DNA of 64,000 nt from an uncultured bacterium (GCA_964562805.1 CAZLUT010000001.1:32574-96573), one strand, 5' to 3'. Positions 2,075-53,265 are shown, numbered from the stretch's first letter. Notes: a model not told the origin generated them from the sequence alone. Translations and numbers: made by a program.

Positions 2075-3133
2075 ATGAAGCGTTCTATAAGAGATCTGAC
2101 ATTAAAGGAGCTGGAAGGAGAGATAGTAAAACGAGGTTTTCCGAAATATCGGGCTAAACAGCTGGTTGATTGGATTTATAAAAAGCAAGTTGTTGCGGTG
2201 AGTGAAATTAAAAACCTTCCTAAGGAATTGTTGCGGTCGCTGGAAAAAGATTTTGTTTTTTCTTCTTTGAAATTAATCAAGATTCATACAGGCGCGGATA
2301 ATTCAAAAAAGTTTTTATTCCAAACCGAAACCGGAGAGCATTTAGAATCCGTTTATATTTATCAAGGCAGCAAAAGGCACGCCCTTTGTGTTTCAACTCA
2401 AATTGGCTGTAAAATGAAGTGTAAGTTTTGTGCGAGCGGGAAGATGGGCTGGAAGAGAAATCTGAGCGCGGGTGAAATCCTGGACCAAATTGCTAATGTG
2501 ATGCATGAATTAAAAGTGCCGCTCGATAATCTTGTTTATATGGGCATGGGTGAGCCGCTTGATAATCTGAATGCTGTTTTAAAATCAATCCGGATTTTGC
2601 GAGCCGATTGGGGTTTTCAGATGGGTTGGCGGCGCATCACCATCTCAACCTCAGGACTTGTCCCTGCTATCAAAAAATTTGCTGCGTCCGCATCAGGTGA
2701 AGTGAAGCTTGCTATTTCTCTTCATGGTACTACCGATGAGGAACGAAAAAAGATTATGCCAATCTCGAAAGTTTATTCTCTTGAGTCATTGATTCAGTGC
2801 CTTAAAGACGTAAAAAATAAATTTAAACGACAATTTATGTTTGAATATATTCTAATTAAAGGCCTTAATGATTCGATGGAAGATGCTAAGAGGCTCAGAA
2901 CCATCGCAAGAAGAGTTGACGCAAAGGTTAATTTGATTCCTTACAATAAGATAGAAGGTGAAAAATTTGAAAGACCCTCGATAGAAAGAATGAAAGAAAT
3001 TCAAAAATTTCTAACCGAATCCGGCATTACCACGATGCTGCGGTATAGCGCGGGGAGTGATATTGGAGCTGCGTGTGGGCAATTGAGACTAATTGAAGAA
3101 AAACACAAAACACAGAACACAAAACACAAATAA
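2075..3133 (+). CDS. rlmN: 23S rRNA (adenine2503-C2)-methyltransferase RlmN (radical SAM)
   Basis: CxxxCxxC radical-SAM motif CKMKCKFCASG, GMGEPLDN and C-terminal Cys region AACGQL. The last about 10 codons (KHKTQNTKHK) are read from the ACACAAA inverted repeat. Confidence 0.85.
   Translation: MKRSIRDLTLKELEGEIVKRGFPKYRAKQLVDWIYKKQVVAVSEIKNLPKELLRSLEKDFVFSSLKLIKIHTGADNSKKFLFQTETGEHLESVYIYQGSKRHALCVSTQIGCKMKCKFCASGKMGWKRNLSAGEILDQIANVMHELKVPLDNLVYMGMGEPLDNLNAVLKSIRILRADWGFQMGWRRITISTSGLVPAIKKFAASASGEVKLAISLHGTTDEERKKIMPISKVYSLESLIQCLKDVKNKFKRQFMFEYILIKGLNDSMEDAKRLRTIARRVDAKVNLIPYNKIEGEKFERPSIERMKEIQKFLTESGITTMLRYSAGSDIGAACGQLRLIEEKHKTQNTKHK
3099..3130. repeat. Inverted repeat, left arm (ACACAAA-unit repeat)
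   Basis: Perfect 32-nt reverse-complement match to 3548-3579. Confidence 0.8.
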
Positions 3134-3152
3134 AACACAAAACACAAACGTT

Positions 3153-3499: not shown

Positions 3500-5155
3500 T
3501 TATTGAAATCTTGTATTTGTTTGTGCTTTGTGGTTTGGATCCCATTGTTTGTGTTTTGTGTTCTGTGTTTTGTGTTTTTTGAAAAAATCAGCAATCGTTT
3601 CTTGATTCTTAATATTCTCCCCAAACCACCCCCCTGTCATTCCGTCTATTTGAGAGGTGAGCTCTTCGATTCTAAGCCAAGATTCGAGAAGCTTTTTTTG
3701 TTCATGCGTTTTAACCAAAACATCTATCTGAAGGCGTCTTCTTTCATAATAAAGCCGAGTCACTTCAGAGACTAATTCATCTCTAAGCTCTACCATCAAT
3801 TTTTCACGCGAATCAATGCTGGTTTGAGAAGAGGAAAAAAGAAGGTCGCCCAAATCCCAGCTCAAATCAATATCCATATCATAATTCCAATCTTCAGGAC
3901 CAACAATATAAAGATCAGGATCTCTCGTGCCGCCGCGGTCAAGGTCAATGTTGTTACCCCGATTATTACCGACCGAATAGGAAACGGAGGGCAGAAGAGA
4001 CTTCAATCTAGAGAAGATTTGCCAGCTCTTAGTTTTTCCATTGGGTGTATTGGAATAACGAATGGCGGCTTCCTGAACCTCTCTCGCTTTTGGTTCGCTC
4101 GCAATCAGTTGATTTAACAATTTAATCAAATTTGATCCATAATGAAGCTCTTGCCTGATGGGTAAGGGATTTTCAGGTAGAGGAAGAGTGATTTTAACGA
4201 TTCCATCATCGGAACTTACCCAGAGCAGGCGTTTGAAATAAATTAAATCATGTATTTTGCCAAGGCTTTTCTCGGTTTTAAGCCTTTTCCATTCAGAATC
4301 GGCAAATCGATATACTCCCTTTTGTGTTCCGGCTATTAGGCCGGGGGGTGTGGTGAGAAGCTGAGTAATGCTGTCTGTTCGTAAACCTGAAGAGGGAAGC
4401 TTATAAAAGTGAAGTCCGCCGGTTTTACTCCCATAAACTCCGCGACTGGTTCCAACCCACACATTTTTTCCATCAGGACTCACTTCAAACGTCGAAAAAC
4501 TGCCTAAATTTTTTGACTCACTGAATTCTGTGCGATCATTTAACAATTCTGTTTCTTTTGGAATCGCACCGAGTAATTTTTCAAAACTAAGACCGCCATC
4601 TCTTGTTTTCCATAAGCTTCTATCAGTGAGAACAAAATAAATTTTTTTTGAAAGAGTCTTGATAGAAAACGGGATTTCTCCCGAAGGGAAGTGATCATTT
4701 TTTTTGAAAACCAATTGGTTTAAGTTTGCCGAAAACAATCCTTTTGTTGTCCCAAGGAAAATTATTTCCTCTTTAATTTTAAAAGTTTCAAGCCTGCCTT
4801 TTGCCGGAGTGGAATTAAAAATTTGCTTCCAGCGGACACCTAAATCTTCGCTGAGGTAGAGGTGCTTATTTGTTAAAAGAAGCAAATTATTGCCAATAAA
4901 TCCAATTCGCCTCATTTCTTGAGTAGCGGGAAGGCTAAAGACCTGCTTATGAAAATTAGTATTTTGTCGTGCAAGATATAGGTTTTTTGGGCTTAAAATT
5001 GCCAATTCCCCATCTTTGATTGGGAGAAGCTGAAGATAATAAGGCTCCTTTGTTCCCCAAGGGATGGTGGGAAGTAGAGCATTTTCTTGAGCAAAAGCGG
5101 GGAGCATTAAGAGAAAAAGAAAGATGATAAGAGGAAAAATGAAGTTTTTAAGCAT
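3500..5155 (-). CDS. Secreted BNR/Asp-box repeat (Ycf48-like beta-propeller) protein with a C-terminal coiled-coil region
   Basis: N-terminal signal peptide MLKNFIFPLIIFLFLLMLPAFAQE; several SxDxGxxW/F Asp-box repeats (SEDLGVRW, TRDGGLSF, SPDGKNVW, SKTGGLHF); C-terminal tail KHKTQNTKHK is read from the inverted repeat. Confidence 0.5.
   Translation of the reverse strand: MLKNFIFPLIIFLFLLMLPAFAQENALLPTIPWGTKEPYYLQLLPIKDGELAILSPKNLYLARQNTNFHKQVFSLPATQEMRRIGFIGNNLLLLTNKHLYLSEDLGVRWKQIFNSTPAKGRLETFKIKEEIIFLGTTKGLFSANLNQLVFKKNDHFPSGEIPFSIKTLSKKIYFVLTDRSLWKTRDGGLSFEKLLGAIPKETELLNDRTEFSESKNLGSFSTFEVSPDGKNVWVGTSRGVYGSKTGGLHFYKLPSSGLRTDSITQLLTTPPGLIAGTQKGVYRFADSEWKRLKTEKSLGKIHDLIYFKRLLWVSSDDGIVKITLPLPENPLPIRQELHYGSNLIKLLNQLIASEPKAREVQEAAIRYSNTPNGKTKSWQIFSRLKSLLPSVSYSVGNNRGNNIDLDRGGTRDPDLYIVGPEDWNYDMDIDLSWDLGDLLFSSSQTSIDSREKLMVELRDELVSEVTRLYYERRRLQIDVLVKTHEQKKLLESWLRIEELTSQIDGMTGGWFGENIKNQETIADFFKKHKTQNTKHKQWDPNHKAQTNTRFQ
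3548..3579. repeat. Inverted repeat, right arm
   Basis: Perfect 32-nt reverse-complement match to 3099-3130. Confidence 0.8.
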
Positions 5156-5260: not shown

Positions 5261-5360
5261 TCCATCAGGTACTTTTTTACAGTTAAAACATATATATAGG
5301 AAATAGAATAATATATAAGGGAGGGAGATTCTTTTTTATAGGAAAAGAATTTTTTTGCTT

Positions 5361-8300
5361 ATGAGGTTTTTATCAAACAATAAAGCGAGCCGTGCGCTCA
5401 CTATCTATTTTCTTATTTTTTGTTTTCTAGCTACATCAAACGCTGTAGCCAACCCGGCTTTTATTCAAGAGGAAACAATTTCCCCCAAAAAACAAACAAC
5501 AAAGGAAGAATTTTTAAGTGAGCTTAAATTAGTTGAATCGGATTTAACACAAAGCAGAAAAAGAGGCGAAAAAGATATTTTAATTTCTGGATTGGTTGAA
5601 CGCTCGCGAAAAATTGTTGGTGCAAAGGCCGCTAGCCTTGGTGAGGTGACGCCTCCTGAAGAGATTCCGCTGCTACATCCCGCCAACCTAGAAGAAATAA
5701 AAGAGCGACTTGAAAAAGAGCTGGAAGGTTATTTGAAACCAACTTTTTCTATCGCGCCGGATATTCCAGAAACCATATGGCTAGGCCTGTACTCAGGACA
5801 TCTTAGAGCCGTTCTTAATGAATTGCTTAAGAATTCCCGGGAGGCAGGCGCCACGCAAGTAAATTTAAATTTTCAGATGATTGACGGCAAGCTTATCATC
5901 AAAGCCCAAGATAATGGCGAAGGAGTGTCTTATGAATCTTTAAAAAAAGCTTTGCTTAAGGCCGCCCAGGAAGAACGGGTTATTAGAAACGAAGATGGAA
6001 TTCTTGAAGTTCCTTTTCCCCGTATTGCGGATGCAAAGCAAATCTTAACCACGGAAGAAGTTTTGGAGTTTATTAAGGAAAATGAAAAGCTGCTTCCTTT
6101 TATCTCGGGCCTTTCCGTAAAAGGAAGTTTTCGTGGCATGGGCATCGCTGCGAGTTGGCAGATTATTAAGCGTCATGGCGGAACAATGGATTATACGACA
6201 GGTCCCGAAGGAACAACTTTTACCATCCAATCACCGGTTTCGGTTAAAGCCAAGAGCCTTGGGAGTGATTTTGTTATAGATTCAGGAAGATCGTATTCGT
6301 TTAAGGATGTTGAGATCGAACAAAGGCAATATCCGGTCTCTTCTCCCGCATCTGTTGTTTTTCCAACGGTCATATTAGAAATTAATAATAGAGCCTACGA
6401 AGTTGGTGGCGAGAATTTTCTAGTTATCACGCTTGCCAACGGAAAAAAGATTTATTGGGGTGGGCAGCACAACCTTTCTTATTCTTTCTTTTTTGAAAAT
6501 TTTAAAGAAAAGGCCGCTGAGCTTATTGAAGCCGGCGGTGTCCTTTGGTTTCATATTGATAATCATGTTGATCTTGGTTCGTACGAAGAGGCAAATAGAC
6601 GTAGTTTAGACACAGGTGTTTGGCAAAAAGAAATTGAGCATGGATATGCCCATCTTAGTTTTGCCAATTACATGGGTTATCTTTTACAGACTAAGGTGGT
6701 TTCTGATTTGCACCGAGCCAGTTCACTCGAAGAGATTGTTGAAGGAAAATGGGCCATCGATTCTCCTTCGGTTGTAGATTTTGATGTCGATGTAATTTTG
6801 GATAATACAGGGAAAACCCGCCTTGGTCTTTTGGAGAAGGCAAAGCTCTTATCAATTTTTAATCAAGCAGATGTTGTTTTTATGACCAATAGTTCGGAGC
6901 TGAGCGCATTTAATCTGGGTGTGCCTTTACATATTGATCCACATCTAGCCATTTCAACTAATGCGAAATTTATACAAGAACTTGCACTCCAATCTAGCTT
7001 GGTGGCAGGTAAGAGTTTGGGAAAAGAGGAAAAGAAAGAAATTTCTTTTAGTGAGATTAATTGGAATCCATTTCGAAAATATGGTGATTGGGCTGGTTTC
7101 TTCCGGGGGCGAACTATTAATCAAGAGCTAGATGATATACAAGAAAAAGCCATGGCGCACCTCACGATGATGTATGAAACGGCTCTCAAAGAAGCAAAGT
7201 CTTTCGAGATGGAGGAGTTGCTTGAAGTGGCAAAAGATTCTGCTCGAGCAAAGATTGAAGGAATGATAGCTGTCCGGCGAGAGGGGGCCCTGGAAAATCG
7301 GCTGATGGACTTTGTCTTAAGACTTAATGGTTCGGGTGTTACTTTACAAACAAGAGAATTAGTTAAAAATTATCTCAAAGATTTTTGGGATAAGGCATCA
7401 GGGGTTTTGAGTGGCCGCGAGGTTTTTGAGCTAGAGGCTCAAAATGCGATTAGGAAAGCGTCTCGTCTCAAAGTGTTTCGTCCTATCCGAACTATATTGG
7501 TTGCTGAAGATGAGGAAGTTTATTTAAAAGATTACAAGAAGGTATTTGAGCGGCTTGGGAGAGACGATATCGATGTGCTTTATTTTCCAACCAGAAAAAA
7601 AGCAATAACTCATTTAAAAACTTTTGGCAAAGAGGTGGATCTTATCTTCGCAGACCGCTCGATGGTAGATGAAGAGGAATATAAGGAAAGATTGGTAGCT
7701 GGTCTTCCTGCTGATGTGGATGATGGCGGGCTTCTTATTGAAGAAGTTAGGAATAAATTAAACCTAAAAACCCCTGTAGTTTTTGTGAGCGGGTCAAGAT
7801 ATGGCCAAAACGAACTAGATCAATTTGGAAATGCAACTCAATTTTCTAAAGCATATCTGAATCCAGAACATTTGGGACGACTCGTTCAGGAATTGATTAA
7901 AATTCTGCCCGAAATTCCTGAGCCTCCTGATGTCGAAGGACTTATGTCCGCTGATAAGATCAAAACGCATAATGATTATTTGCTAGACCTTTTATCTTTT
8001 CTTGGCTCCTTGGACCGCTCTGAAATAACTACAAAAATTAATGAAAATTTGTCACCAGCATCATGGCAGGCATGGGTAGCGCATGATTTTAAAACCCCAA
8101 TTGGCGTAATTCTGCAGAATGTGCAATTAATTGAAGATTACAAGAAAAGCGATGAAGCTGTACCAATTAAAAATATTAAAAGAATCATAGAAAATTATCA
8201 GAAAATAAAGGATGCGCTGACTGTTATAGACCGGGCGGGTGAACCTATTCGCCCTGAATATTTTGATCGGCTAACTCATACTGGTAGCAAGAAAGATCCT

Positions 8301-13583: not shown

Positions 13584-16500
13584 TGCTAAGTGTGGTAAGT
13601 AAGTATAAGACGTTCCTAGCTTTTATTATCTACCCGCTTATCTTTTGCTTTCTCACTACAACAATTGCAGTAGCTTCCCCTATTTCACAAATTAAAACCG
13701 ATACTATCTCAGCAGAAAAGCAGACCCAAGAAAGAGACTTTCTTGAAGAGATCCGCCAAGTCGCGGAAGAGCTCGCTGAGAGTAAAGAGCGGGAAGAGGA
13801 AATAGTATCAATTGGAGAAATTGTTGAAAAGGTTAGGGGGTCCGAAGATCAAAGAATCAAAGCGATGCGAAAAGAAGCAATTGATCGGACAAGAAAAGTG
13901 CTGGAGGTTACTGGTAAATCTTGGGTAGCGCCGAGTTTGCCCGCTGTGGCTGGCACCGAGCACCGAGAGCTGAGCGTTACCGGTAAGTCGCTTGGCAGAA
14001 CAAAACGGCATGCTCTAATAAGTCAAGCCGCACGTGATATGCCGTCTTTTATGAAAGACAGGGCAAAAATGGTTCAGAGGCTTTACGAGAGCATTGATTC
14101 TGAAGAAGCTAAGCGAATCCTGCTTCGACCTGATGTTTTACCTGTTTTTCTTGGAATCAAATCTGCTTATCTTACTTATGACAGAGACCCTCTTATTGGC
14201 CCATTAAGCGAGAAGGTCTCTGAAGCTTCTGAGGAGTTTCACGACCTGGGACTGGTTTTTTCTGAGCGCTACGTTATCTCAATTGACTATCTCTTTGACC
14301 GATTTGAAAAAGAAGGCGATTTTCTTGTAAAGGAAAAGATTATTTCTAAAGACGAATTGGAATCTTTTATTAAGAGCGGGCCCACACAGGAGACGATGAA
14401 CAGTATCGACGGTCTTCTCGATCAATATCACGGTGATGTTCCGGGCAGAACTATTTTACATGGTTTTCTGATGGGTTATCCGCTGAGAGAAATTATATTT
14501 GCGGCCAGAAGTGAAAAAACTTGGGAAGGTTTTGTGAGCGAATATGGATTGCACGTCGTTAGCCCGGGAACCGAAAGAATAAATAGACTGCTTAGCGGCT
14601 GGGATATAGGAACGCATTTTGGTTATCTGACTTTGTCTAATGAGCCGGATTTTGAAGAGATGATGGAGCCTAGTGCGTTGAGAGTTTTTAAAACAATTGA
14701 AGGAAAAAGTCTTGGAACGGATGAGATTTTGGTGAAGCTTAAAAGCGCAAGGCGTATTAATGAGAATGCCAGAGAGTATGGAGAGATGACTTATCAGGAA
14801 GCGATTGAAGTTATGAAATCTTTGCCCGATGGATTATGGAGAGTTGAGGATAAAGGCGAGTTGTTAAATATTTTTAATGTTATTTTGGCGACCTTAGACA
14901 AAGCAGAAGAGACAATCTTTGAAGCTGGTGGAGCAAGCTTGTTTTATATTCATTGCACTTCCAGATTAGAAGAAGTTCTGGGGCGTTTACCCCAAGAAGA
15001 TCGGGAGGCAAAAAGGCTCGAACTCCTGGATTTGGTTAATACCTACATTAATCCTGTGGGAGAAATTAGTCAAAAAGCAGCGGCGCTTATCAAGGCAGTC
15101 GAAGGTTCAACAGACCGTTACCCATCATCTTTTGATGAGCCCGACGCTTCTTATGATGAACTTCTTCCAAAATTAATCTCACTTGTTAAATCTATTCATC
15201 CCAACGAAGATTCTAGGCTGGATCCTTATAATATAAAAATCAAAGCGCTTGAAACTATAGATGCAATTGTCCATTCGGGTTTTATAAGTGACTTCCGCGA
15301 AATTATTAAATTTTTACTAGCAGAGCTCAAAAAAATTGATGACCCTCGAAATATACGCACTTCCTTGGTAGAGGCGATTGCCGGAGTTTTAATCTCTATT
15401 TTGTATAAGCAGAATAATTTAAAGTACGAATATGGCGGTATTGATCAGGCTACGAATGTTAATTGGGCTCTAAGAAGGACGCTTGGCGCAGAGGGCGGCC
15501 GAGGGACAATATCTCTATTCGAAGCGTTTGGCTCCTTTGGCGACGTAAACAAAATAGTAAAAAGGTTGAGCCAAAACTTTGAAAAAGCGACAACCCAGAA
15601 GCAAAAAGAGAAGGCTCTTAAAGCAGCAGTTAAAGAAATAGATGCGTACGGGGAGTTTTTACAAAACGAATATGAGATATCACGTGTATTGGATTTGCTA
15701 GAATTTGGATTTGATAAAAAATTATCTAAGGATCAAAAGCTGAACAAAGCTCTCCATAAAATTTCAAATGTAAAAAGCTTTAGAGAAGCTCTTAAAGACT
15801 TGTTAGATTCAGTTACCCTTCCTGATAAACTCTCAAATCTCGGCACAGGCCTTTTTAAAGTGTTATCTTCAATAATTCAGGATTTTACGGAAAAAGCTCT
15901 TTTAACTGATGACTCTAAAGAATTAAAAACTATATTAAGAAATACTATTCAAAAAATGGAGGAATATCAGAATTTCTTGGCTGCAAAAGTAGCGCGCGAG
16001 GAGGGTTTGGAAGAGGAGGCCGAAGGCAAAAAGCGTGCCCCGCCAGAAGAGGAGATTTTTAGAGCAGAGGCGAAGAGTATGGGTGCCGCTTATTTGATGG
16101 TTGCTATAAAAAGTGAACCTGCTTTAGCCATAAAAGAGAATTTTGAAATTGTTCTTGAAGAAATCCACGATGCTAGCCCCAGGTCGGCAAGAGAAGCTTT
16201 GGAAGCCATACCATTTTTTATTAAAGCAAACCCTAAGCTTGCTACAAAAGAAGTCCTTAAAAATATTCTAAACAGGCTTTTCTTGGGATATTGGGATGAT
16301 GAACCACTAAAGCCTGATTCGAGTGTTTATTTGATCACACCAAATATTTTTATCCTCAGAAGTTTTTACGCGGCAGACCGCAAATTATTTAATAATGAAT
16401 TGTTCGAAATTGTCAAAAAATCCGCTGATGATAGCAATAAAGATGCCGTCGATATGGCTCTTCCGTTTTTTGCATCAAATATGTTTGGAATTGATATCGA

Positions 16501-19500: not shown

Positions 19501-22500
19501 ATTCTCAAACCTATCCGTGCCCGGCGGCAAGAGTCTTATTAATTTGCTGAAGCAATTTGGAATTTATGAGGATGCTGATACCGGCATTCAGGTGAATGAC
19601 CTTCGCGTGAATGAAATTGTTACTAATGATGAAAAAATCAATCAAATTATCCGTAAAGAAGGCGAGTTTGCTTCCCGTGCGAAGAGCTTGGGAGAAGAAA
19701 CAAAAATTTTCGAAGATTGGCTGGAAATGTGGAGCGAGATTTATGAAAGAAAATTAACTATTAATTTTAAACCGCCTGAATTTGAAGAATCTGGATTTCT
19801 TACTTTAGAAAATAGGCTTGGTAAGATGGCCGCAGAAATTCAGTATCGTTATTCAGTTAGAGACCCGGTGGCTGGCGATCTAATAACAATAATTGATCAA
19901 AGCACAGCAACAGATTACCAGAGAAAGAGAATCATGACTTTGATGCATTTATTTTTATTAGATTATTACCCCAAAGTTCGAACTGTTGAATTTGATGGAC
20001 TTTCTGATCATGGTGAAAGTCTTGCGGAAACATTAAAGCAATTTGGAATTTATTATCCTATTGGCGATAAATTTCAAGTGGTTGGGCGTCGTTTGGATGA
20101 AATCGTTGCTTTTAACGAAAATATCAAACAAATCATCGCGAAAGAAGGTGAATTTGTTTCGCGCGGAAAAAGTTTGGGTAGAGGAATGGAGTTTGTCGAT
20201 CCTAAGTACCTCACCTTGAGCCCAGAATTAAGAAGAACAAAAGATTTTAATTTTAAACTTTTAAATGAATTATCTGAGACAGAGAGAGAAGAATTGATAC
20301 AGCTTATCATGGGATTTCTGGAGGTCAAAGGTAAGATCGGCAGAATAAAAGCCATGCGGCGATTAAGTAAATTTAAGGCCCCACGCTCCTTTGAGGTCGT
20401 GGCCTTCAAGAACAATGAAGCAGTTGGTTATACCAACGCTTATTTTACGGATCAAATTTTTATTCCTAGAGAAGTATATATTACTGATATTTATGTTAAA
20501 GAGGGCGAGGCTTATCGTAGACACCGTATTGGTACAAATCTTTTTAATATTACCAAAGAGCATGCAAGAAACATTGGAGCTCAGGAGCTTATAGTTAGCG
20601 GCATTAGACAAAAATCAGAAGCCCAAGATTTTTGGAAGAAAATAGCTGAACAAAATCCGGATACTAACATCCAATATTATGGGCCTTTAAAGAAGATTTC
20701 TCGGATCGGATTGGATTTAACAAGAAACCTCCCCTCGATACCGGATGCTGAAGGATTGCCGGCTTTTGAGAAAATCGGAGCTTATGTGAACTTTGTCATG
20801 AAATTAGTGTCTGCTATTGGGAAAATTGATCAGAAGCTAACTCTTTATTTTGAAGCGAGCCCCAAGCCGCTTCCCGAGGCATGGGTGGATTGGGCAGGAC
20901 ATACTGTAAAAGAAGATTTGAGCTCTGTAGCTACCTGGCATGATGGGTTTGATACCTTATATTCGGCCGCTGCAAGGAAGAAGGAATTTAAAGAAGATCC
21001 CCGTATTCTTAATTACGTAGACAAATATATTGATTCTTTTAAAAGTTATTTTGCCCCAATCAAGAGGCTAGCTAGGGGGCATCCTTCTGATTATACGGCT
21101 GGCCTTACAAAGAAGGGTGATGAGACAGAGCCGGTTGATCGCACGCAATTGGCACGCTATTTCGCAAGAGATCTTTTTATTAATCATCCTGATGCCGAAA
21201 GCAACTGGCAGTTTTTTCAAGCCGCGGTCAGCAGCGTTGATGAAACTCTCGTCAAATTAAAATCCGCAATCAAAGAACTTGAGGAGGAGGTAGGGGCAAG
21301 AAGCTTGGGCGAAGAGGGAGTTTTGTTTCCTTCCAAAGATTTTTCAAAATACGGGATATCCGAAACTGATTCACGTTTTAACGCTATGATGCGGCCGCAG
21401 CAGATCGCCTTTTTCATGCTAATGAAACGGATGCTTAATCTTCCACCGAGAAGCATGGGCATCTATGAAGCGTCTTTTTCTGATATTTCATCTTTGTTGC
21501 TTGCGACTAATTTAGATAATGTCATCATGGTGGACAGCACTTCTTTTCACGACCCATCAAAACGACCTGATTTTTGGAGAGATAAAAAAGATGGTTTTTT
21601 ATCAAATAAGAAAATTTTCGGCTTTCTCCCAACAGAATTTTTAAAACAATATGGTGTCTATGAGGACGTAGAGCATCCTCTTATGTGGGAACTTAGTGCT
21701 ATTGGAGCAACTAATATTCGCGTTAAAAAGTATCTTAATTATAAAAACGCGTATGTGATTAACTTTTATTGGGCATATCACAATGAGGCCCCTCGCCCTC
21801 GCAAGATAATATTTTTTGAAAATACAAATACTGCGGAAGAATCTAAAAATAGGGACCTTTTATATAAGTTTTATGGCTACTATAAGGATAAAGTGAAGGT
21901 AGCTTTTTACAGAAATTCAGAAGCAATCGCGACTTCATTTCCGTTAACAGAAGCTAAAGCGCACTTTCAAAAATTGCGAGAGATATTCCCTGGCAACACT
22001 TTATTTGTGTCTAACTTTGATTTTGCCTCTTATTACGACGGCTACAAAAACAATAATCTTTTTATGGGACCAACCCCAAGGGAAAACCTGACTTCCGTTC
22101 GAGGCTTTTTAAAAGAGTTTGATGTGCAATATGGTCTGGACCCTGAGAGGGACCCTGAAGAGCTGTATATCAGCACACCGCGTTTAATAGTTGGCCAAAG
22201 CCTTGGAGAAGAGGAGATAGTTCAGCGAGTAATGTCTAATATCGGAGAATCCGAAGAGCCTTTTTACGGCATGCTTCCCGCGTCACTTCTTGAGGAATTG
22301 GCTGAAAGCGAAGGTAAGGACGTTCTAAAACAGCAGATGGAATATTTGATCGGAAACAAGGCGAATCATATTGTTATTCTGTGGGATACAGATATTCCGC
22401 GCTTTGAAAGAAATGAGTGGCTGGATAAATTGGGACTTGGTGCGCTTGGTAGCAAAAAGAATTTTATCACAACTCCTCTAAAAGCAAAGATAGATGAAAA

Positions 22501-22813
22501 GGCGCTTCAGGATCAAATAAAAGAAACTCTAAAAATATTGCTTTCAAGAGGCGTTGAAACTCGTGCAATTGGGCTGCTAAAACCATTTGATGAGCAATTT
22601 AAAGTTGATGCCCATTCATTAAAATCCAAATCACCGCAAGCGCTTCTTCTCCTGCATTACTTAGTGCAGATTGACGGTGATCTTGCGCAAGATCTGTTAA
22701 GAATCTTTTCGATTGATCCCAAGACAGGGGATTATCTGGCAGAACTCTCGAATCATCTCGAACGCCTCTTCCAAGAAGCCCGCGCTGCAGAAGCGGTGCG
22801 TAAAGCAGCGTAG
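13583..22813 (+). CDS. Giant secreted multi-module protein 2 (3076 aa), a mosaic paralogue of protein 1. Contains a receiver-like domain, a GNAT domain, two internal tandem duplications, twelve KSLG-type linkers and a conserved C-terminal module
   Basis: - The ATG overlaps the upstream stop (TAATG at 13581-13585).
- Signal peptide ...LIFCFLTTTIAVASP.
- REC-like domain 17690-18040.
- GNAT motif YRRHRIGTNLF around 20500.
- The C-terminal approximately 200 aa align with the C-terminus of protein 1 (…LHYL[IV]QIDGDL[SA]QDLLRIF…DPKTGD[FY][IL]AEL). Confidence 0.8.
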   Translation: MLSVVSKYKTFLAFIIYPLIFCFLTTTIAVASPISQIKTDTISAEKQTQERDFLEEIRQVAEELAESKEREEEIVSIGEIVEKVRGSEDQRIKAMRKEAIDRTRKVLEVTGKSWVAPSLPAVAGTEHRELSVTGKSLGRTKRHALISQAARDMPSFMKDRAKMVQRLYESIDSEEAKRILLRPDVLPVFLGIKSAYLTYDRDPLIGPLSEKVSEASEEFHDLGLVFSERYVISIDYLFDRFEKEGDFLVKEKIISKDELESFIKSGPTQETMNSIDGLLDQYHGDVPGRTILHGFLMGYPLREIIFAARSEKTWEGFVSEYGLHVVSPGTERINRLLSGWDIGTHFGYLTLSNEPDFEEMMEPSALRVFKTIEGKSLGTDEILVKLKSARRINENAREYGEMTYQEAIEVMKSLPDGLWRVEDKGELLNIFNVILATLDKAEETIFEAGGASLFYIHCTSRLEEVLGRLPQEDREAKRLELLDLVNTYINPVGEISQKAAALIKAVEGSTDRYPSSFDEPDASYDELLPKLISLVKSIHPNEDSRLDPYNIKIKALETIDAIVHSGFISDFREIIKFLLAELKKIDDPRNIRTSLVEAIAGVLISILYKQNNLKYEYGGIDQATNVNWALRRTLGAEGGRGTISLFEAFGSFGDVNKIVKRLSQNFEKATTQKQKEKALKAAVKEIDAYGEFLQNEYEISRVLDLLEFGFDKKLSKDQKLNKALHKISNVKSFREALKDLLDSVTLPDKLSNLGTGLFKVLSSIIQDFTEKALLTDDSKELKTILRNTIQKMEEYQNFLAAKVAREEGLEEEAEGKKRAPPEEEIFRAEAKSMGAAYLMVAIKSEPALAIKENFEIVLEEIHDASPRSAREALEAIPFFIKANPKLATKEVLKNILNRLFLGYWDDEPLKPDSSVYLITPNIFILRSFYAADRKLFNNELFEIVKKSADDSNKDAVDMALPFFASNMFGIDIDFETLRPLELAISEIFALIGKEVFVSEESTKHLESILISLSEQLAVTEDEVERGKIILDTFNKMLELQEFMKLQKARARGTLRAEDEKKEVSEDEIFRETPSLSAEAGAMRPAPRVTGKSLGAAYLIDAIKSEPSLAVEANFKKVLKEIQNPEHKEARKALRAIPFFIKANPKLATKKALRNILMKLFWGYWFYGKPSAVDQPIYLVKPNLYVLRSFYEADRKLFDDELYEIVKKIAHDTQRDIEDVVAAVLPFFISSMFGIDIDFETFKHLERAISQTLEILGNEVFVSEESTRHLRSIIISFSEQLAAIEDEAEQEQIVLDTFGKVLELQDFLKAKKERAKGLELGVEGKERTPPEDEIFREAPRAEAKSLGMEDEIIKVIQEALHVKIERHIRTKLIAEDDEDIQKIYKRAFEQLARDDITVLYFPHRRAAINYLRDYGDEVDLIFADRAMDDRDEIDERIKERLPLDIDDGTLLVKQARSRLNLNIPVIFISSTIYNQDELDQFGNATQLPKQYLDATTLEHLIQKLIQILPELPEPPSVEELTPAERMQAHIQYLRELFEFLGPLKKSTIKVIKKKALQSTTWYSWLSHGFQNELLSIEISMRRARARKERGQTISSDTLRNLKESYEKMERSFVIVDRLTRPYRPEYLAMLTETGSEASPIPHPKLPLYFSKAVFEDHPNEANNRKIFQATAPIIDSTLKKLGEAVDEYVREAGGAPGVTAASLGGIADIISPEEAAPLRMELEEGLIDDKARLNYPIQQILLHQDIQQKNKEIAWLIKVRADHFPILSQHVDELIRFVNDNPDWMPSNGLELLIFRLFAGHSYSDLNRESLAAFDEALPPVVRLLRNFDIKNLVKRGVTTDREIYPLKVSSYFINDASEIRKLGKTAQDIIKRAEAKSLGEETQIFEDWLKAWGDVYGEKLAINFEPAPLGGLGFFGLKDEAGEKVAGIFYSYLNENLIKIGLQSTADNYRRKRLMTLVHLFLLNYHPKVTAVEFSNLSVPGGKSLINLLKQFGIYEDADTGIQVNDLRVNEIVTNDEKINQIIRKEGEFASRAKSLGEETKIFEDWLEMWSEIYERKLTINFKPPEFEESGFLTLENRLGKMAAEIQYRYSVRDPVAGDLITIIDQSTATDYQRKRIMTLMHLFLLDYYPKVRTVEFDGLSDHGESLAETLKQFGIYYPIGDKFQVVGRRLDEIVAFNENIKQIIAKEGEFVSRGKSLGRGMEFVDPKYLTLSPELRRTKDFNFKLLNELSETEREELIQLIMGFLEVKGKIGRIKAMRRLSKFKAPRSFEVVAFKNNEAVGYTNAYFTDQIFIPREVYITDIYVKEGEAYRRHRIGTNLFNITKEHARNIGAQELIVSGIRQKSEAQDFWKKIAEQNPDTNIQYYGPLKKISRIGLDLTRNLPSIPDAEGLPAFEKIGAYVNFVMKLVSAIGKIDQKLTLYFEASPKPLPEAWVDWAGHTVKEDLSSVATWHDGFDTLYSAAARKKEFKEDPRILNYVDKYIDSFKSYFAPIKRLARGHPSDYTAGLTKKGDETEPVDRTQLARYFARDLFINHPDAESNWQFFQAAVSSVDETLVKLKSAIKELEEEVGARSLGEEGVLFPSKDFSKYGISETDSRFNAMMRPQQIAFFMLMKRMLNLPPRSMGIYEASFSDISSLLLATNLDNVIMVDSTSFHDPSKRPDFWRDKKDGFLSNKKIFGFLPTEFLKQYGVYEDVEHPLMWELSAIGATNIRVKKYLNYKNAYVINFYWAYHNEAPRPRKIIFFENTNTAEESKNRDLLYKFYGYYKDKVKVAFYRNSEAIATSFPLTEAKAHFQKLREIFPGNTLFVSNFDFASYYDGYKNNNLFMGPTPRENLTSVRGFLKEFDVQYGLDPERDPEELYISTPRLIVGQSLGEEEIVQRVMSNIGESEEPFYGMLPASLLEELAESEGKDVLKQQMEYLIGNKANHIVILWDTDIPRFERNEWLDKLGLGALGSKKNFITTPLKAKIDEKALQDQIKETLKILLSRGVETRAIGLLKPFDEQFKVDAHSLKSKSPQALLLLHYLVQIDGDLAQDLLRIFSIDPKTGDYLAELSNHLERLFQEARAAEAVRKAA
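16064..17620 (+). repeat. Intragenic tandem duplication in giant gene 2 (two units of about 780 nt, each about 260 aa; roughly 65-70% aa identity by eye)
   Basis: Unit 1 at 16064-16843 (AEAKSMGAAYLMVAIKSEPALA...IPFFIKANPKLATK...FGIDIDFET...) parallels unit 2 at 16844-17620 (VTGKSLGAAYLIDAIKSEPSLA...IPFFIKANPKLATK...FGIDIDFET...). Confidence 0.8.
19199..20164 (+). repeat. Second intragenic tandem duplication in giant gene 2 (two units of about 160 aa)
   Basis: 19199-19678 (AEAKSLGEETQIFEDWLKAW...YRRKRLMTLVHLFLLNYHPKV...LKQFGIY...) parallels 19679-20164 (RAKSLGEETKIFEDWLEMW...YQRKRIMTLMHLFLLDYYPKV...LKQFGIY...). Confidence 0.8.
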
Positions 22814-22827
22814 GCGCTATACGATCG

Positions 22828-22990
22828 GAATACACAAATCCCAATACACAAACTACAAGCAAATTAAAATACAGAAATTAAAAATTCGAAACAGAGAGGA
22901 ATTTTTGTAAAGACTTTTACGGTTTTAAATTTCTTATTTGTTTATTTTAATTTGTTTGTAATTTGGAATTTGTATATTGGAATTTGTTTA
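22828..22990. repeat. Long imperfect inverted repeat (arms about 55 nt, AC-rich ATACACAAA units) between the giant-gene stop and ychF
   Basis: Left arm 22828-22885 (ATACACAAATCCCAATACACAAACTACAAGCAAATTAAAATACAGAAATTAAAAA) pairs approximately with the reverse complement of 22925-22990 (ACAAATTCCAATATACAAATTCCAAATTACAAACAAATTAAAATAAACAAATAAG). Confidence 0.45.
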
Positions 22991-23035
22991 TGAATTGCAT
23001 GTTGGCATTTAAGAAACATTTGATAGAATTTGCTC

Positions 23036-24130
23036 ATGGGATTCAAATGCGGAATAGTCGGCTTACCAAATGTCGGCAAATCAACTCTTTTTAACGCAAT
23101 GACTCGGGCAGGCGCCGAGATTGCGAATTATCCTTTTTGTACTATCGATAAAAATGTAGGCATCGTACCTGTTCCCGATGAAAGACTCACACGCTTAGCC
23201 GAAATATATCAGCCCAAAAAAATTACACCTACTATCATCGAAGTGGTTGATATTGCAGGTCTTGTAAAGGGTGCTTCTGAGGGTGCTGGGTTAGGAAATC
23301 AGTTTTTAGGAAACATTCGTGAAGTGGACGCAATATTTCATGTCGTAAGATGTTTTGAAGATCCGGATGTGGTTCACTCCTCAGGCAAGGTTGATCCGAT
23401 TGATGATATCGGGATTATTAATACCGAACTTTGCCTCAAAGATATGGAGACCCTTACCAAAAGAACTGACAAAACAGGAAAACTTGCAAGAAGCGGCGAT
23501 AAAGAAAGTTCGGCTCAAATGGAAGTGTTCGAAAAGGTCAAAAAAGGCTTAGAGGATGGCATCCCGGTAAGACTTCTTAATTTAACAAAAGAAGAAAAAG
23601 AAAAAATCAAAGAACTCTCGCTTTTAACATCAAAACCTGTTCTTTACTGCTGTAATGTAAGCGATACTGATCTTCCCGAAGGTGGCGAGCTAGTTAGTAA
23701 GGTTAAAGAATACGCGGCTAAAGAAAATTCAGGGGTAGCTGTTATTTCAGCCAAAATTGAAGCTGAAATCGTTGAACTAACGGAAGAAGAAAAGAAGGAA
23801 TATCTGAAATCTTTTAATTTAAAAGAATCAGGCCTCGACCATATGGCGCGCGAAGGATATAAGCTTTTGGAACTCATTACTTTTCTTACGGGCGGTCCGA
23901 CTGAAGTCCGTGCTTGGACGGTGCATAAAGGCGCCACGGCTCCGCAGGCTGCCGGAGTTATTCATTCGGATTTTGAGCGGGGATTTATCAGAGCCGAAAC
24001 CATGAAATTTGAAGATTTGGATAAACTGGGCAGCGAGCCTGCCGTTAAAGAAAAAGGCTCCTATCGAACCGAAGGCAAAGAGTACATTATTCAGGACGGA
24101 GACGTGGTGTTTTTTAGATTCAACGTTTAA
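23036..24130 (+). CDS. ychF: Ribosome-binding ATPase YchF (Obg-family GTPase with TGS domain)
   Basis: N-terminus MGFKCGIVGLPNVGKSTLFNA is near-identical to the canonical YchF G1 region; C-terminal TGS domain. ATG at 23036 preferred over the TTG at 23030. Confidence 0.9.
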   Translation: MGFKCGIVGLPNVGKSTLFNAMTRAGAEIANYPFCTIDKNVGIVPVPDERLTRLAEIYQPKKITPTIIEVVDIAGLVKGASEGAGLGNQFLGNIREVDAIFHVVRCFEDPDVVHSSGKVDPIDDIGIINTELCLKDMETLTKRTDKTGKLARSGDKESSAQMEVFEKVKKGLEDGIPVRLLNLTKEEKEKIKELSLLTSKPVLYCCNVSDTDLPEGGELVSKVKEYAAKENSGVAVISAKIEAEIVELTEEEKKEYLKSFNLKESGLDHMAREGYKLLELITFLTGGPTEVRAWTVHKGATAPQAAGVIHSDFERGFIRAETMKFEDLDKLGSEPAVKEKGSYRTEGKEYIIQDGDVVFFRFNV

Positions 24131-37314: not shown

Positions 37315-37977
37315 ATGAAACATTTCCATCAAATCATTTTATTAGTTTTAGTAAGTTTACTTCTAATTCCGCAAATTGCCGGAGCCAAAGAATCGACACC
37401 GGGTGACGCACCTGAGCTTGTTATTGCTGATTTTGATTCGGGAAAAAAACCCAATAATGTTGGCGGTGACTTTGGATCTTGGAATTACGCTCCTCGGGAT
37501 GAAACTCAAGGATGTTGGGACTGGTTTGAACCTACCAATTTCAATGACGTTGAAGGCTATAGCGTGATTATGGAGTATGACGTTAAATCTCCTAATCCCG
37601 CGTTTTGCGGTTTATGGATGAAGCTTAAAAATGTAGATGTTTCACCCTATGATGTTTTAAGCCTGTGGCTTAAAGGCGACGAAAAAACAGGATTTACAAC
37701 GCGTTTCAAGATAGAAATGAGAAATAAACGCGGGAAACGTGCCGTTTATACCGTTAGCGGAGTTGATAATACCTGGCAGAATTTCAAAATTCCTTTTAAG
37801 AAAACTCGGGCTATTAATGATTGGAGTCAGATACAAGAAATGACTGTTGTATTTGATGATATTATGGCGACTAAAAAAGTGGGGCAGATTCTTTTAGATC
37901 AAATTAGTTTCAGGAAATATACCCCCGAAGAATTAAAGGCCCAAAAAGAAGCGCTAGCCAAGAACGCTGCCGCATAA
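37315..37977 (+). CDS. Secreted protein, function unknown; paralogous module shared with the next gene
   Basis: Signal peptide; the C-terminal block WQNFKIPFK...DWSQIQEMTVVFDD...ILLDQISF recurs in 37978-39984. Confidence 0.45.
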   Translation: MKHFHQIILLVLVSLLLIPQIAGAKESTPGDAPELVIADFDSGKKPNNVGGDFGSWNYAPRDETQGCWDWFEPTNFNDVEGYSVIMEYDVKSPNPAFCGLWMKLKNVDVSPYDVLSLWLKGDEKTGFTTRFKIEMRNKRGKRAVYTVSGVDNTWQNFKIPFKKTRAINDWSQIQEMTVVFDDIMATKKVGQILLDQISFRKYTPEELKAQKEALAKNAAA

Positions 37978-39984
37978 ATGAAACTTAAGGTTCTCGCTGT
38001 CAGCCTTTTGGCTGTAGCGAATTTAGTTTTTCTCTCAAGTGATATCGAGGCCGGCCAAGCGCCTCAAAAACTTAAAGAGACGCGTTACCAGCCGAGAGTT
38101 TTAAAACAGCCGACGCATCAAAACCGGGTTCTTCTCGTCGACAATTTTAATTATCCCAATATGATGAATTTGCTCGGAGGAGAAACCCAGGGCGATGAAG
38201 AAGAGCCGGGCGGACTCATTCCTTCCTACACACCCAGTGGCCGTTTAACGATGGGGGAAGCCGGACATTCTCTAAAAATGGATTACAACGTGGCGATACC
38301 CATGGCTATTGCCTATTATTGGACACGTCTTGGCCCTGTGGATTCGGAGGTTGTGGGAGCAACTTTTCCGATTGATCTAGAAGGTTTCAACTATCTTTCT
38401 TTTTGGATAAAAACCGACCGAGAATATCCTCGTTTTGCCATCGAATTTCACCAGGATGTCAATAATGACCATATCTTCACTCTTGGAAAGGATACCAATA
38501 ATAAGATTGCTGTTTCCAGCTTTATTCTCTCGCCGGCCGAAAAAATCGCGGGAGGCGCTGCTGAAGTTATCGTTGATGTTAAGGATAAAAGAATTTTAGT
38601 TGAGAGTCGTAAAAAGAAGAAACCTAAAGTTGAAGAAGAGCTAAAACCGCAAGAGGAGGAGAAGGAAGAAGATGTTATTGAGACAGCGTCATTGAGCGAA
38701 ACGCCCGATGAGGCGGGAGAAATGATAGAGGTAATGTCTCCGCCAATTCTTCCAGGAGGAGAGGTTCTAAAAGAAGAAAAAACACAAACCACAGAGCGCA
38801 AAACACAAGAAGTAGCTGCAAAAGAACCGGAGATTCAAGAAGTTAAAGAGCTGGAGGAGAAGAAGGAAGAAACTGCGAAAGAGGCAGAGCCGGAGAAAAT
38901 GGAAGAGAAGCAAGAAAAAGCAGACGCCGAGCCAAAAAAAGAAGAAAAGCCGGAAGATATAAGCGGCAAGGTTAAAGAAGAAGAGAAAACGGTTGAAGCG
39001 ATGAAGAGACAAAAACCTAGCTCATTGTTGCGGCTGAAGAAATATAAGCGACGCTCCAGAAAAAGAGTCACTTTCTTTCACACCGAAGGTCCGGCTACTT
39101 CGCCCGAAAAGGAAGTTAGCAGAAGGGAACTTGAAGTATCCAGACGAAAAGCGCCCAAAAAGAGAGCGGTGGAGATTGAAGTAGGCAGCACGGTTGTTTC
39201 GAGGGCTGTTGTTACAACTGTTTTGGGAAAAGGAACTTCAATTCAGGCGCCTACTCAAATTAGAGCTATGCGTAAAAAAGATTTGTCCTGGCGAAAAGTA
39301 GTGGTGCCTTTAAGCCGATTTCGCGGCATTACGGATTGGTCCAAAATTTTAGAAATGATTTTTCTTTTTAGTGATCAATTAGCTTCTGATCAGGGCATTA
39401 TCTATGTTGACGATATTCTTTTTGGAACGAACTATATGCATCCGAAACCTGAAAAAGTACGTGCACCAAAAATAGAATTTTTAAAATTTGCTAAACTCAA
39501 GGAAAACATTTCTCCCGCGGTTATACGGGGCATTCAGATGGCAAGCCGTAAGGAGGAAAACCAGGCTGTCCACAAAGTATCCGAGGAAGCTCTCATGGCG
39601 CGGGATGTGAGCGGAGATCTCCTTAAAGCTCAACTTAATTCAAGAGAGAAAATAATAAACTTTTTTAAAACAGAAGACGCTGAGAATTTTATTGATGGAG
39701 CGCGTCTCCCCAACACTTTTTTGCTCTATTTTAAGACAAGTGTTACTGACCCCACCTTAGAAACAATTCGTGTTGAAACAAGCCAGGACGAGGGGGTAAC
39801 GTGGAGTATTATTTCAAACCTTTATTCTCACCAAGAGGATGGGGTCTATATCTTTCCGTGGAGGCTTCCATCAACCGGGGCGGGTGAATCAATCTTATTT
39901 CGCTTAAATGCCGCTGATATTTGGGGGAGGGCGGCTGTTATGGGAGAACCTATTAAGTTTCAAGTTGGAGGTGCCAGTGAGTAG
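37978..39984 (+). CDS. Secreted protein with two beta-sandwich-like modules flanking a highly charged E/K-rich low-complexity region
   Basis: Start overlaps the upstream stop (TAAATG); signal peptide; E/K-rich segment about 38600-39180; module DWSKILEMIFLFSDQ...IYVDDILFG. Confidence 0.45.
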   Translation: MKLKVLAVSLLAVANLVFLSSDIEAGQAPQKLKETRYQPRVLKQPTHQNRVLLVDNFNYPNMMNLLGGETQGDEEEPGGLIPSYTPSGRLTMGEAGHSLKMDYNVAIPMAIAYYWTRLGPVDSEVVGATFPIDLEGFNYLSFWIKTDREYPRFAIEFHQDVNNDHIFTLGKDTNNKIAVSSFILSPAEKIAGGAAEVIVDVKDKRILVESRKKKKPKVEEELKPQEEEKEEDVIETASLSETPDEAGEMIEVMSPPILPGGEVLKEEKTQTTERKTQEVAAKEPEIQEVKELEEKKEETAKEAEPEKMEEKQEKADAEPKKEEKPEDISGKVKEEEKTVEAMKRQKPSSLLRLKKYKRRSRKRVTFFHTEGPATSPEKEVSRRELEVSRRKAPKKRAVEIEVGSTVVSRAVVTTVLGKGTSIQAPTQIRAMRKKDLSWRKVVVPLSRFRGITDWSKILEMIFLFSDQLASDQGIIYVDDILFGTNYMHPKPEKVRAPKIEFLKFAKLKENISPAVIRGIQMASRKEENQAVHKVSEEALMARDVSGDLLKAQLNSREKIINFFKTEDAENFIDGARLPNTFLLYFKTSVTDPTLETIRVETSQDEGVTWSIISNLYSHQEDGVYIFPWRLPSTGAGESILFRLNAADIWGRAAVMGEPIKFQVGGASE

Positions 39985-53192: not shown

Positions 53193-53260
53193 TAGTTAGT
53201 GGATAGAATATGTATACTAGGGACCTATTACTAAATACTAATGACTAAATACTAACGACT
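53175..53260. repeat. Intergenic repeat family copy F
   Basis: AGTGAATAGTGGTTAGTAGTTAGTGGATAG followed by a degenerate inverted counterpart CTATTACTAAATACTAATGACTAAATACTAACGACTAA. Confidence 0.6.
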
Positions 53261-53265
53261 AATTT

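Follow-up and report, generated by a model that had tools for sequence, protein, structure and literature searches.

A window of 64,000 nucleotides (nt) from an uncultured bacterium (GCA_964562805.1 CAZLUT010000001.1:32574-96573) was analysed for two giant genes that lie head to tail within it; positions are counted from the first letter of the window, and the features of both genes lie on its plus strand. In the list of open reading frames (ORFs), giant gene 1 occupies 5355..13583 and encodes 2742 amino acids (aa) from the TTG at 5355, with the ATG at 5361 being the likelier start. Giant gene 2 (13583..22813) directly follows it and encodes 3076 aa. The stop codon of gene 1 and the ATG of gene 2 overlap as TAATG; this overlap suggests translational coupling, and the two genes are probably coupled. 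Each protein is divided into 12 modules by 11 short junction peptides, and the modules between the junctions are mostly unrelated to one another, many of them belonging to no family in Pfam or NCBIfam. Domains recognised with Pfam were HATPase_c (aa 149-295) and a PrmA-like methyltransferase (aa 1126-1231) in gene 1, and GNAT (aa 2264-2352) and a weak receiver domain (aa 1371-1430) in gene 2. Both translations, inspected by eye, open with a signal-peptide-like N-terminus: that of gene 2 (13583..13675) has a basic n-region, about 20 hydrophobic residues and AVA|SP, and that of gene 1 (5361-5450) has AVA|NP. Relatives with complete N-termini start in a similar way, and we infer from these N-termini that the products of genes 1 and 2 would leave the cytoplasm by a Sec-like route. 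At the other end, both proteins finish in a conserved module of about 205 aa with terminal Ala-Ala (gene 1, 12954..13580, ending ...ARAA; gene 2, 22196..22810, ending ...RKAA), and the two C-terminal modules are 51% identical.

The junction peptide is far more frequent than composition alone would give. Gene 1 has 10 copies of KSLG and gene 2 has 7, where 0.10 and 0.09 occurrences were expected and the maxima among 1000 shuffles were 3 and 2. When K, R, Q or A is allowed at the first position and L or M at the third, 22 junctions are obtained, in which the serine and the glycine are invariant, and the wider consensus is [V/A/I]-[T/E/K]-[G/A]-K-S-L-G-E-[E/D]-E. The junctions that frame the duplicated modules of gene 2, described below, are A-K-S-M-G at 16070..16084 (serine coded AGT), G-K-S-L-G at 16850..16864 (serine coded TCG), A-K-S-L-G at 17606..17620, 19205..19219 and 19679..19693, and G-K-S-L-G at 20165..20179. 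Across all junctions, serine is written as AGT, AGC or TCG, and leucine and glycine are each written with four codons. This synonymous variation indicates that the constraint acts on the peptide and not on the DNA or RNA; together with the unrelated peptides that hold the same position in other lineages, it led us to reject a DNA-level role for the junction, such as a recombination site or an internal ribosome-binding site.

To compare the modules, both proteins were split at [GA][KRQA]S[LM]G, with the junction lysine as the boundary, and all modules were compared with one another by BLASTP. Gene 2 contains two tandem pairs of modules. The first, array A, consists of unit A1 (g2_m04; 16073..16852; 260 aa, starting KSMG) and unit A2 (g2_m05; 16853..17608; 252 aa, starting KSLG), and its three junctions stand ahead of A1, between the units and after A2. 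The second, array B, consists of unit B1 (g2_m08; 19208..19681; 158 aa) and unit B2 (g2_m09; 19682..20167; 162 aa), with junctions placed in the same manner. BLASTP aligned g2_m04 with g2_m05 at 59% identity over 252 aa (E 6e-102) and g2_m08 with g2_m09 at 52% over 162 aa (E 8e-51), and six DNA repeats (D1, D4-D6, D8 and D9) trace both pairs in ungapped blocks of 73-84% identity. An earlier note on this DNA had placed the two pairs correctly to within three codons, its units lying in frame and starting three codons before the junction lysine. The motifs it had quoted are present in both A copies (IPFFIKANPKLATK and FGIDIDFET) and in both B copies (IFEDWL, Y[RQ]RKR[LI]MTL[VM]HLFLL and LKQFGIY). 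Neither array was reported by Tandem Repeats Finder, and the 780-nt unit is beyond the 500-nt period limit of that program.

The same note had described clean two-unit duplications, each unit beginning exactly at a junction. The pairs are real and every unit begins with KS[LM]G; however, array A also has a partial leading copy, of the tail only, at the end of g2_m03 (15857..16072), seen both as DNA repeat D10 and in a chunked self-BLAST of gene 2. The last ~70 aa of g2_m03 (gene 2 aa ~759-830) match the tail of unit A, with residues 385-453 of m03 aligning to residues 179-245 of m05 at 48% identity by BLASTP (E 1.6e-12) and with a probability of 96% in hhalign. Array A therefore amounts to some 2.3 copies, and the junction does not fix its register uniquely.

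The age of the duplications was assessed from codon alignments, in which A1 and A2 share 60% of their amino acids and 71% of their nucleotides, with a synonymous divergence (dS) of 0.89 and a ratio of nonsynonymous to synonymous divergence (dN/dS) of 0.30. The corresponding values for B1 and B2 are 54%, 66%, 1.02 and 0.35. A dS near 1 is on the scale of the divergence between E. coli and Salmonella. The modules common to genes 1 and 2 have a dS from 1.45 to saturation with similar dN/dS, and dN/dS is 0.25-0.35 in all paralogous module pairs. These data indicate that the tandem duplications postdate the split of gene 1 from gene 2, yet are in no sense recent, as they had been called, and that both copies of each pair have long been retained by purifying selection, as the dS of about 0.9-1.0 and the dN/dS of about 0.3 imply.

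The arrays are also constant among the assemblies in which they recur. A second full-length copy of the gene 2 protein on an NCBI contig (P0046) is identical at 3072 of 3076 residues and has equal length, and a JGI fragment of 4.6 kb that spans m08/m09 (P0047) is identical at 1497 of 1498 residues; both of these 99.9% identical proteins carry the same modules, which gives no support to the copy-number variation between strains that had been predicted. A JGI version (P0001) differs from the window at 4 residues near 17700-17730 (g2 aa ~1364-1371), and the window matches P0046 where checked, and so represents the NCBI contig of 96.9 kb and not the JGI one of 82 kb. Proteins of the window recur in NCBI, JGI, ENA and Logan assemblies. 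Because the tandem copies have diverged at about 30% of their nucleotides, collapse or expansion during assembly is no concern, and the independent assemblies agree; the duplications are hardly the artefact that the earlier note had named as its refuting condition. Altogether, the tandem pairs are ordinary, old, selected paralogous modules, neither recent nor unstable.

Uninterrupted identity between copies reaches at most 46 nt and 18 nt. The 46-nt perfect run joins A1 to A2 (16204-16249 and 16984-17029) and encodes AIPFFIKANPKLATK. In the A pair, 69% of the conserved residues keep the same codon, so that a run of this length is not statistically unusual, and gene conversion around it was considered and rejected as not significant. 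The run, of sufficient length for homologous recombination, could permit rare unequal recombination, of whose happening no evidence was found, and the A1/A2 46-mer was absent from the metagenome_contigs collection. Module A (alignment A4) had no match in an index of 5.8 billion proteins, in metagenome contigs or among PDB sequences, and no Pfam family was found for unit A1; by these comparisons the duplicated module A is an orphan. The AlphaFold model of module B1 reached a predicted local distance difference test (pLDDT) score of 47 and was too poor for use. A GNAT-like fold was suspected for B1 and B2, and hhalign gave it no support.

Duplication and re-ordering of whole modules extend well beyond the tandem pairs. 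The all-module comparison confirmed that genes 1 and 2 share blocks in different order, namely g1_m04 with g2_m06, g1_m06 with g2_m02, g1_m08 with part of g2_m01, g1_m09 with the C-terminal half of g2_m10, and g1_m12 with g2_m12. In gene 1 a receiver-like module precedes the module that we call the signature module, and in gene 2 the order is reversed. A dispersed duplicate pair, g1_m07/g1_m11, lies within gene 1. A domain of about 190 aa with the motif (F/Y)xxHPxAExN is present in four copies (7857-8465, 10782-11369, 18110-18679 and 20720-21298), always last in its module and just ahead of the junction, and its partner is receiver-like twice and GNAT once, the domain standing alone once; this distribution is best read as domain shuffling inside modules. 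Internal duplications, tandem or dispersed and at 25-78% identity, were also found in at least six relatives (P0003, P0013, P0034, P0043, P0050 and P0029). Judged from these alignments, module duplication is a family-wide trait, a slow modular evolution kept by selection. The tandem pairs, the dispersed pairs and the order of the shared modules together bear out the proposal that these are arrays of a module plus its linker that evolve by whole-module duplication and re-ordering. Searches of proteins, genomes and metagenome contigs yielded no intermediate relatives for a comparison of module order and count, and a contig scan based on ychF, the next gene downstream of gene 2, returned 80 loci at no more than 64% identity, none with a giant junction-bearing ORF beside ychF.

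The wider family was recovered through one module. With gene 2 as the query, a word-index search brought up nothing beyond gene 2 itself, gene 1 and a protein of 4731 aa (P0003), and the segment common to these three is the signature module, g2_m02 (13985..14704; 240 aa). Its copy in gene 1, g1_m06 (9249..10004), is 46% identical (E 1e-80) and has a different rank in the array. An exhaustive profile search with a hidden Markov model (HMM) of the signature module, covering 1.84 billion representative proteins, gave only 32 clusters, the mark of a rare family; most of them are of 1,600-6,500 aa, and five were stand-alone proteins of 275-317 aa. All three members with a source name are annotated as Candidatus Omnitrophota or Omnitrophica. 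A scan of genome_contigs with the signature module found nothing. P0003 adjoins a second giant gene of 4538 aa and contains CoaE, a cytidylyltransferase-type domain, an epimerase, a histidine phosphatase and NUDIX as modules parted by RSE[VMT]R instead of KSLG. Another relative, P0026, has SecA-like modules and matches M50 peptidases weakly, and two short genes, or about 850 nt, separate it from a PmbA/TldD pair downstream; the source name of P0033 is glycine hydroxymethyltransferase. The loci of the enzyme-bearing relatives are L001 (JGI 3300029959) and L004 (ENA ERZ27253376).

The structure of the signature module was modelled with AlphaFold from an alignment of 16 sequences, and the model was confident (pLDDT 93.4, predicted template modelling score 0.90). 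Ordered helices run from residue 5, just past KSLG, to residue 239 of 240; the model fills the whole interval between junctions, and the linker would be essentially the junction peptide itself. Foldseek found no match to the model in PDB or BFVD, and the signature module may have a new fold. The 16 aligned sequences have no invariant residues other than P, G, Y and F, and the module is probably not an enzyme. With its stand-alone homologues of 275-317 aa and its confident model filling the interval, the signature module behaves as an independent protein.

The family also reveals how the junction varies. In nearly every giant protein of the family, the commonest 4- or 5-residue word is a junction-like peptide, among them RSEVR, RSELR, RAETR, RPEVR, ASSLG, SLGQ, DNGG and GPGTP. 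The signature module lies within 31 aa of the junction peptide of its own lineage on both sides in 12 relatives and on one side in 4 more, and the peptides that stand beside it are RSE[VM]R, RAETR, R[PA]E[VIA]R, RSELR, xSLG, DNGG and GPGTP. On this evidence the junction is specific to the lineage and not to the module, as is expected if it co-evolves with a trans-acting reader.

Two further features recur at the ends of the family proteins. The C-terminal residue is alanine in 20 of 21 giants with a complete-looking end, and 13 of these end in Ala-Ala (for example ...RKAA, ...ARAA and ...AVAA). This terminus, which in the window lies at 13572-13580 and 22802-22810, may be likened to an ssrA-like or PDZ-recognised C-terminus. 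Family-wide homology of the C-terminal module was examined as well and was unsupported by HMM iteration and hhalign, which gave a weak match in the last ~35 residues only. At the other end, behind the signal peptide, a domain of about 500 aa (aa ~1-520) was found in 11 relatives (P0009, P0013, P0017, P0022, P0026, P0028-P0030, P0032, P0034 and P0043), with invariant Q..H, E-G, R and GGFH. It is absent from the window, genes 1 and 2 included. Its invariant residues are reminiscent of the hydrolases of the TraB/Tiki superfamily; sequence searches of Pfam and PDB gave no match to it. The domain is a candidate for the cognate protease of the junctions.

The setting of the two genes is that of an ordinary-looking bacterial chromosome with a GC content of about 40%. 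The window also codes for ABC transporters, RlmN, YchF, MlaE, PurH, MnmE, a Mur ligase and PAS histidine kinases, and the neighbours of the giant genes are an ABC-2 transporter pair, RlmN, a BNR/sortilin-like protein and, after gene 2, ychF (23030-24130). Within gene 1, a mini-module of 28 aa (10698..10781) is flanked by two junctions; its homologue lies inside the N-terminal segment of gene 2 (aa 89-111; 13847-13930; 74% over 23 aa, E 2.5e-9) and is followed there by GKSW, apparently a decayed junction. The gene 1 mini-module would come free as a short peptide if the junctions were cut. Module g1_m03 (6252-7010) is 33% identical to P0009 aa 3121-3337 and has GGxH, HxDxHxD and DxDxD motifs and no Pfam hit; these motifs are reminiscent of the arginase/deacetylase (ureohydrolase) signature. 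Elsewhere, Pfam assigned no family at E <= 1e-5 to three successive ORFs at 37315-41320, of 220, 668 and 470 aa. The window also contains short AT-rich tandem repeats, such as AAAACAC and TGTGTTT, whose periods are 7, 14, 25 and 32 nt; they lie at 3100-3148, 3548-3578, 22928-22991, 53230-53262, 59173-59233 and 62408-62437, several close to where a long ORF ends and one inside the 216-nt spacer 3' of giant gene 2.

Taken together, these data favour, at somewhat better than an even chance, a reading in which genes 1 and 2 are coupled polyprotein-like giants, each an exported precursor that is cut at its junctions by a co-evolving protease and that changes slowly by duplication and shuffling of modules. 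A precursor with a signal-peptide-like N-terminus would be exported carrying about 12 independently folding and mostly unrelated modules, including a histidine-kinase-type ATPase, an S-adenosylmethionine (SAM) methyltransferase, GNAT, receiver-like modules and orphans. A trans-acting factor, most probably a protease, would read the junction [G/A]-K-S-L-G-(E/D-rich) and co-evolve with it, splitting the precursor into separate proteins by analogy with viral polyproteins or the release of MARTX effectors. Over longer times, the family would change through whole modules being duplicated, moved and swapped, the tandem pairs of gene 2 being old instances of this. Two marks of a polyprotein are found here: one ORF joins proteins that exist independently, and a conserved short motif stands at each boundary.

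Several points weigh against this reading. We infer both the cleavage at the junctions and the cognate protease. No protease domain or classical protease motif was found in gene 1 or gene 2, a scan for peptidase families matched none at E <= 0.1 for the whole proteins or at E <= 1 for 17 of the 24 modules, and Pfam found no protease among the scanned neighbouring ORFs of 150 aa or more. The modelled linker has only about 5 residues between confidently folded domains, which would leave a protease little room. Since S-x-x-E can also serve to cap a helix, a purely structural role for the junction is conceivable. Two relatives, P0014 and P0011, have no obvious junction motif. Finally, the export of enzymes that depend on ATP, SAM and acetyl-CoA is hard to explain unless another cell is where they work.

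Some of these points would be accommodated if the giants were uncleaved multidomain proteins forming a membrane-anchored multi-enzyme scaffold, with the junction serving as structural punctuation (a helix C-cap glycine and an S-x-x-E N-cap) or as a motif for docking or modification. Neither genes 1 and 2 nor the Pfam hits of the scanned neighbours revealed a protease, the confident model has helices on either side of a very short linker, and published work on the giant genes of Omnitrophota does not settle whether they are cleaved (10.1101/2023.11.21.568195). However, it is not usual for passive linkers to arrive 22 times at a single pentapeptide while synonymous codons turn over, a motif that is specific to the lineage and not to the module calls for a trans-acting reader, and RSExR, DNGG and GPGTP lack the capping pattern. 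We regard the scaffold as unlikely, though as the most serious competitor of a cleaved polyprotein.

Considerably less probable, and in our view refuted as far as recency goes, is a rapidly expanding cassette array like those of MARTX, polymorphic toxins or antigenic variation, with recent duplications and copy-number variation between strains, which was the picture drawn in the earlier note. The repeats do consist of module plus linker, the module order does differ between the paralogues, and the 46-nt run shared by A1 and A2 could support rare unequal recombination. MARTX cysteine protease domains (CPDs) prefer to cut after leucine, and L|G in KSLG would fit this preference. Nevertheless, the pairs have a dS of about 1 and a dN/dS of about 0.3, the 99.9% identical full-length assembly agrees in length and modules and the fragment matches in sequence, and a run of 46 nt is to be expected when 69% of conserved residues retain their codon. 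No near-identical donor cassettes were seen, the best repeat within 5355-22813 being 84% over 109 nt; Pfam and NCBIfam matched neither RTX repeats nor CPD or toxin domains, and no immunity genes or genes of a type I secretion system (T1SS) lie among the neighbours. That assembly created the duplications or the giant ORFs, or that these are fused pseudogenes read through without function, we consider hardly credible. The data are metagenomic, and the modules and the 46-mer were not recovered from the metagenome_contigs collection; on the other side, the copies differ at about 30% of nucleotides, too many for collapse or expansion, the protein or a 1,498-aa part of it is also found on NCBI and JGI contigs, every paralogous module pair bears the mark of purifying selection in its dN/dS, the Pfam domains are intact, and one module was modelled at pLDDT 93.

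The exported and cleaved polyprotein may be part of a wider pattern. Tentatively, and at rather less than an even chance, we propose that a rare lineage, probably within Omnitrophota, produces sets of as many as ~20 unrelated enzymes in the form of chromosomal polyproteins that are exported by Sec and cut according to a lineage-specific code (KSLG, RSExR, RAETR, DNGG and others) by a co-evolving protease. Such a protease might engage the conserved -Ala-COOH terminus, and the polyproteins might deliver enzyme cocktails to a host or prey cell. In literature searches, nothing was found that links Omnitrophota to polyproteins or describes natural bacterial polyproteins of this type; the architecture of the family appears undescribed, and the lineage-specific junction code appears to be new. 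The junction peptide offers a rule for splitting giant proteins into modules for structure prediction, a testable cleavage hypothesis, and a handle for finding the cognate protease through co-variation. Confirmed cleavage would make polyprotein expression a strategy of bacterial cells and not of viruses alone, and it would hint at a way in which bacteria that are ultra-small, and possibly dependent on a host, could deploy many enzymes at a fixed stoichiometry.

Among known systems, none of the tested defining features was found for those to which the earlier note had likened the locus. Antigenic-variation cassettes differ in that no near-identical silent donors occur within 5355-22813 and the tandem units are 66-71% identical. 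Unlike polymorphic toxins, genes 1 and 2 have a conserved C-terminal module (51%) with no match to a toxin family, and the gene downstream is ychF, not an immunity gene. The MARTX toxins of Vibrio and related bacteria may be compared as giant secreted proteins with an array of effector modules that differs in complement and order between paralogues or strains, and their modules are freed by cuts after leucine in short linkers. As to the strain mosaic of MARTX, the array here differs between genes 1 and 2 and is the same in the 99.9% identical assemblies. Genes 1 and 2 also lack the RTX glycine-rich repeats (Tandem Repeats Finder found no arrays within 5355-22813, and Pfam and NCBIfam no RTX or hemolysin-type match), the C80 cysteine protease domain, and T1SS or rtxC neighbours; their signal is N-terminal and Sec-like, and what can be recognised among their modules is enzyme and signalling domains of general use rather than toxin domains.

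Surface precursors from which cuts at recurring short motifs yield several mature proteins are found in bacteria, as with the gingipains RgpA/Kgp of Porphyromonas and the P97/P102-family adhesins of Mycoplasma hyopneumoniae (S/T-X-F|X-D/E); unlike genes 1 and 2, these yield a protease plus related adhesin domains and not a dozen unrelated enzyme-like modules, and neither is known to have a lineage-specific junction code. Viral polyproteins (picornavirus, flavivirus, coronavirus pp1a/ab) resemble the giant genes in that one ORF joins unrelated proteins and in having a lineage-specific, peptide-conserved boundary motif. They differ in that genes 1 and 2 are chromosomal and bacterial, with an N-terminal secretion-type signal, a putative cleavage and no recognised protease module.

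A further comparison is with the giant genes of Omnitrophota ('Archaeovorin', Dockerin-type), which encode more than 30,000 aa with many transmembrane segments, C39/S8 peptidase domains and adhesion repeats (10.1101/2023.11.21.568195). These genes (West-Roberts et al.) belong to the phylum of the named relatives of our family, and they share with it very long ORFs, mixed enzymatic domains, suspected cleavage and, in the relative P0026, a SecA-like module. Genes 1 and 2 are only 2,742 and 3,076 aa long and have none of the C39/S8 peptidase or adhesion-type domains of that class. In the preprint describing it, cleavage was speculated upon, with the cleavage points stated to be unknown, which blocks analysis (10.1101/2023.11.21.568195). 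In contrast, the family described here, at 2.7-6.5 thousand aa, carries an explicit recurrent junction peptide and, if the polyprotein reading is true, such peptides would be the missing cleavage points of the giant Omnitrophota proteins.

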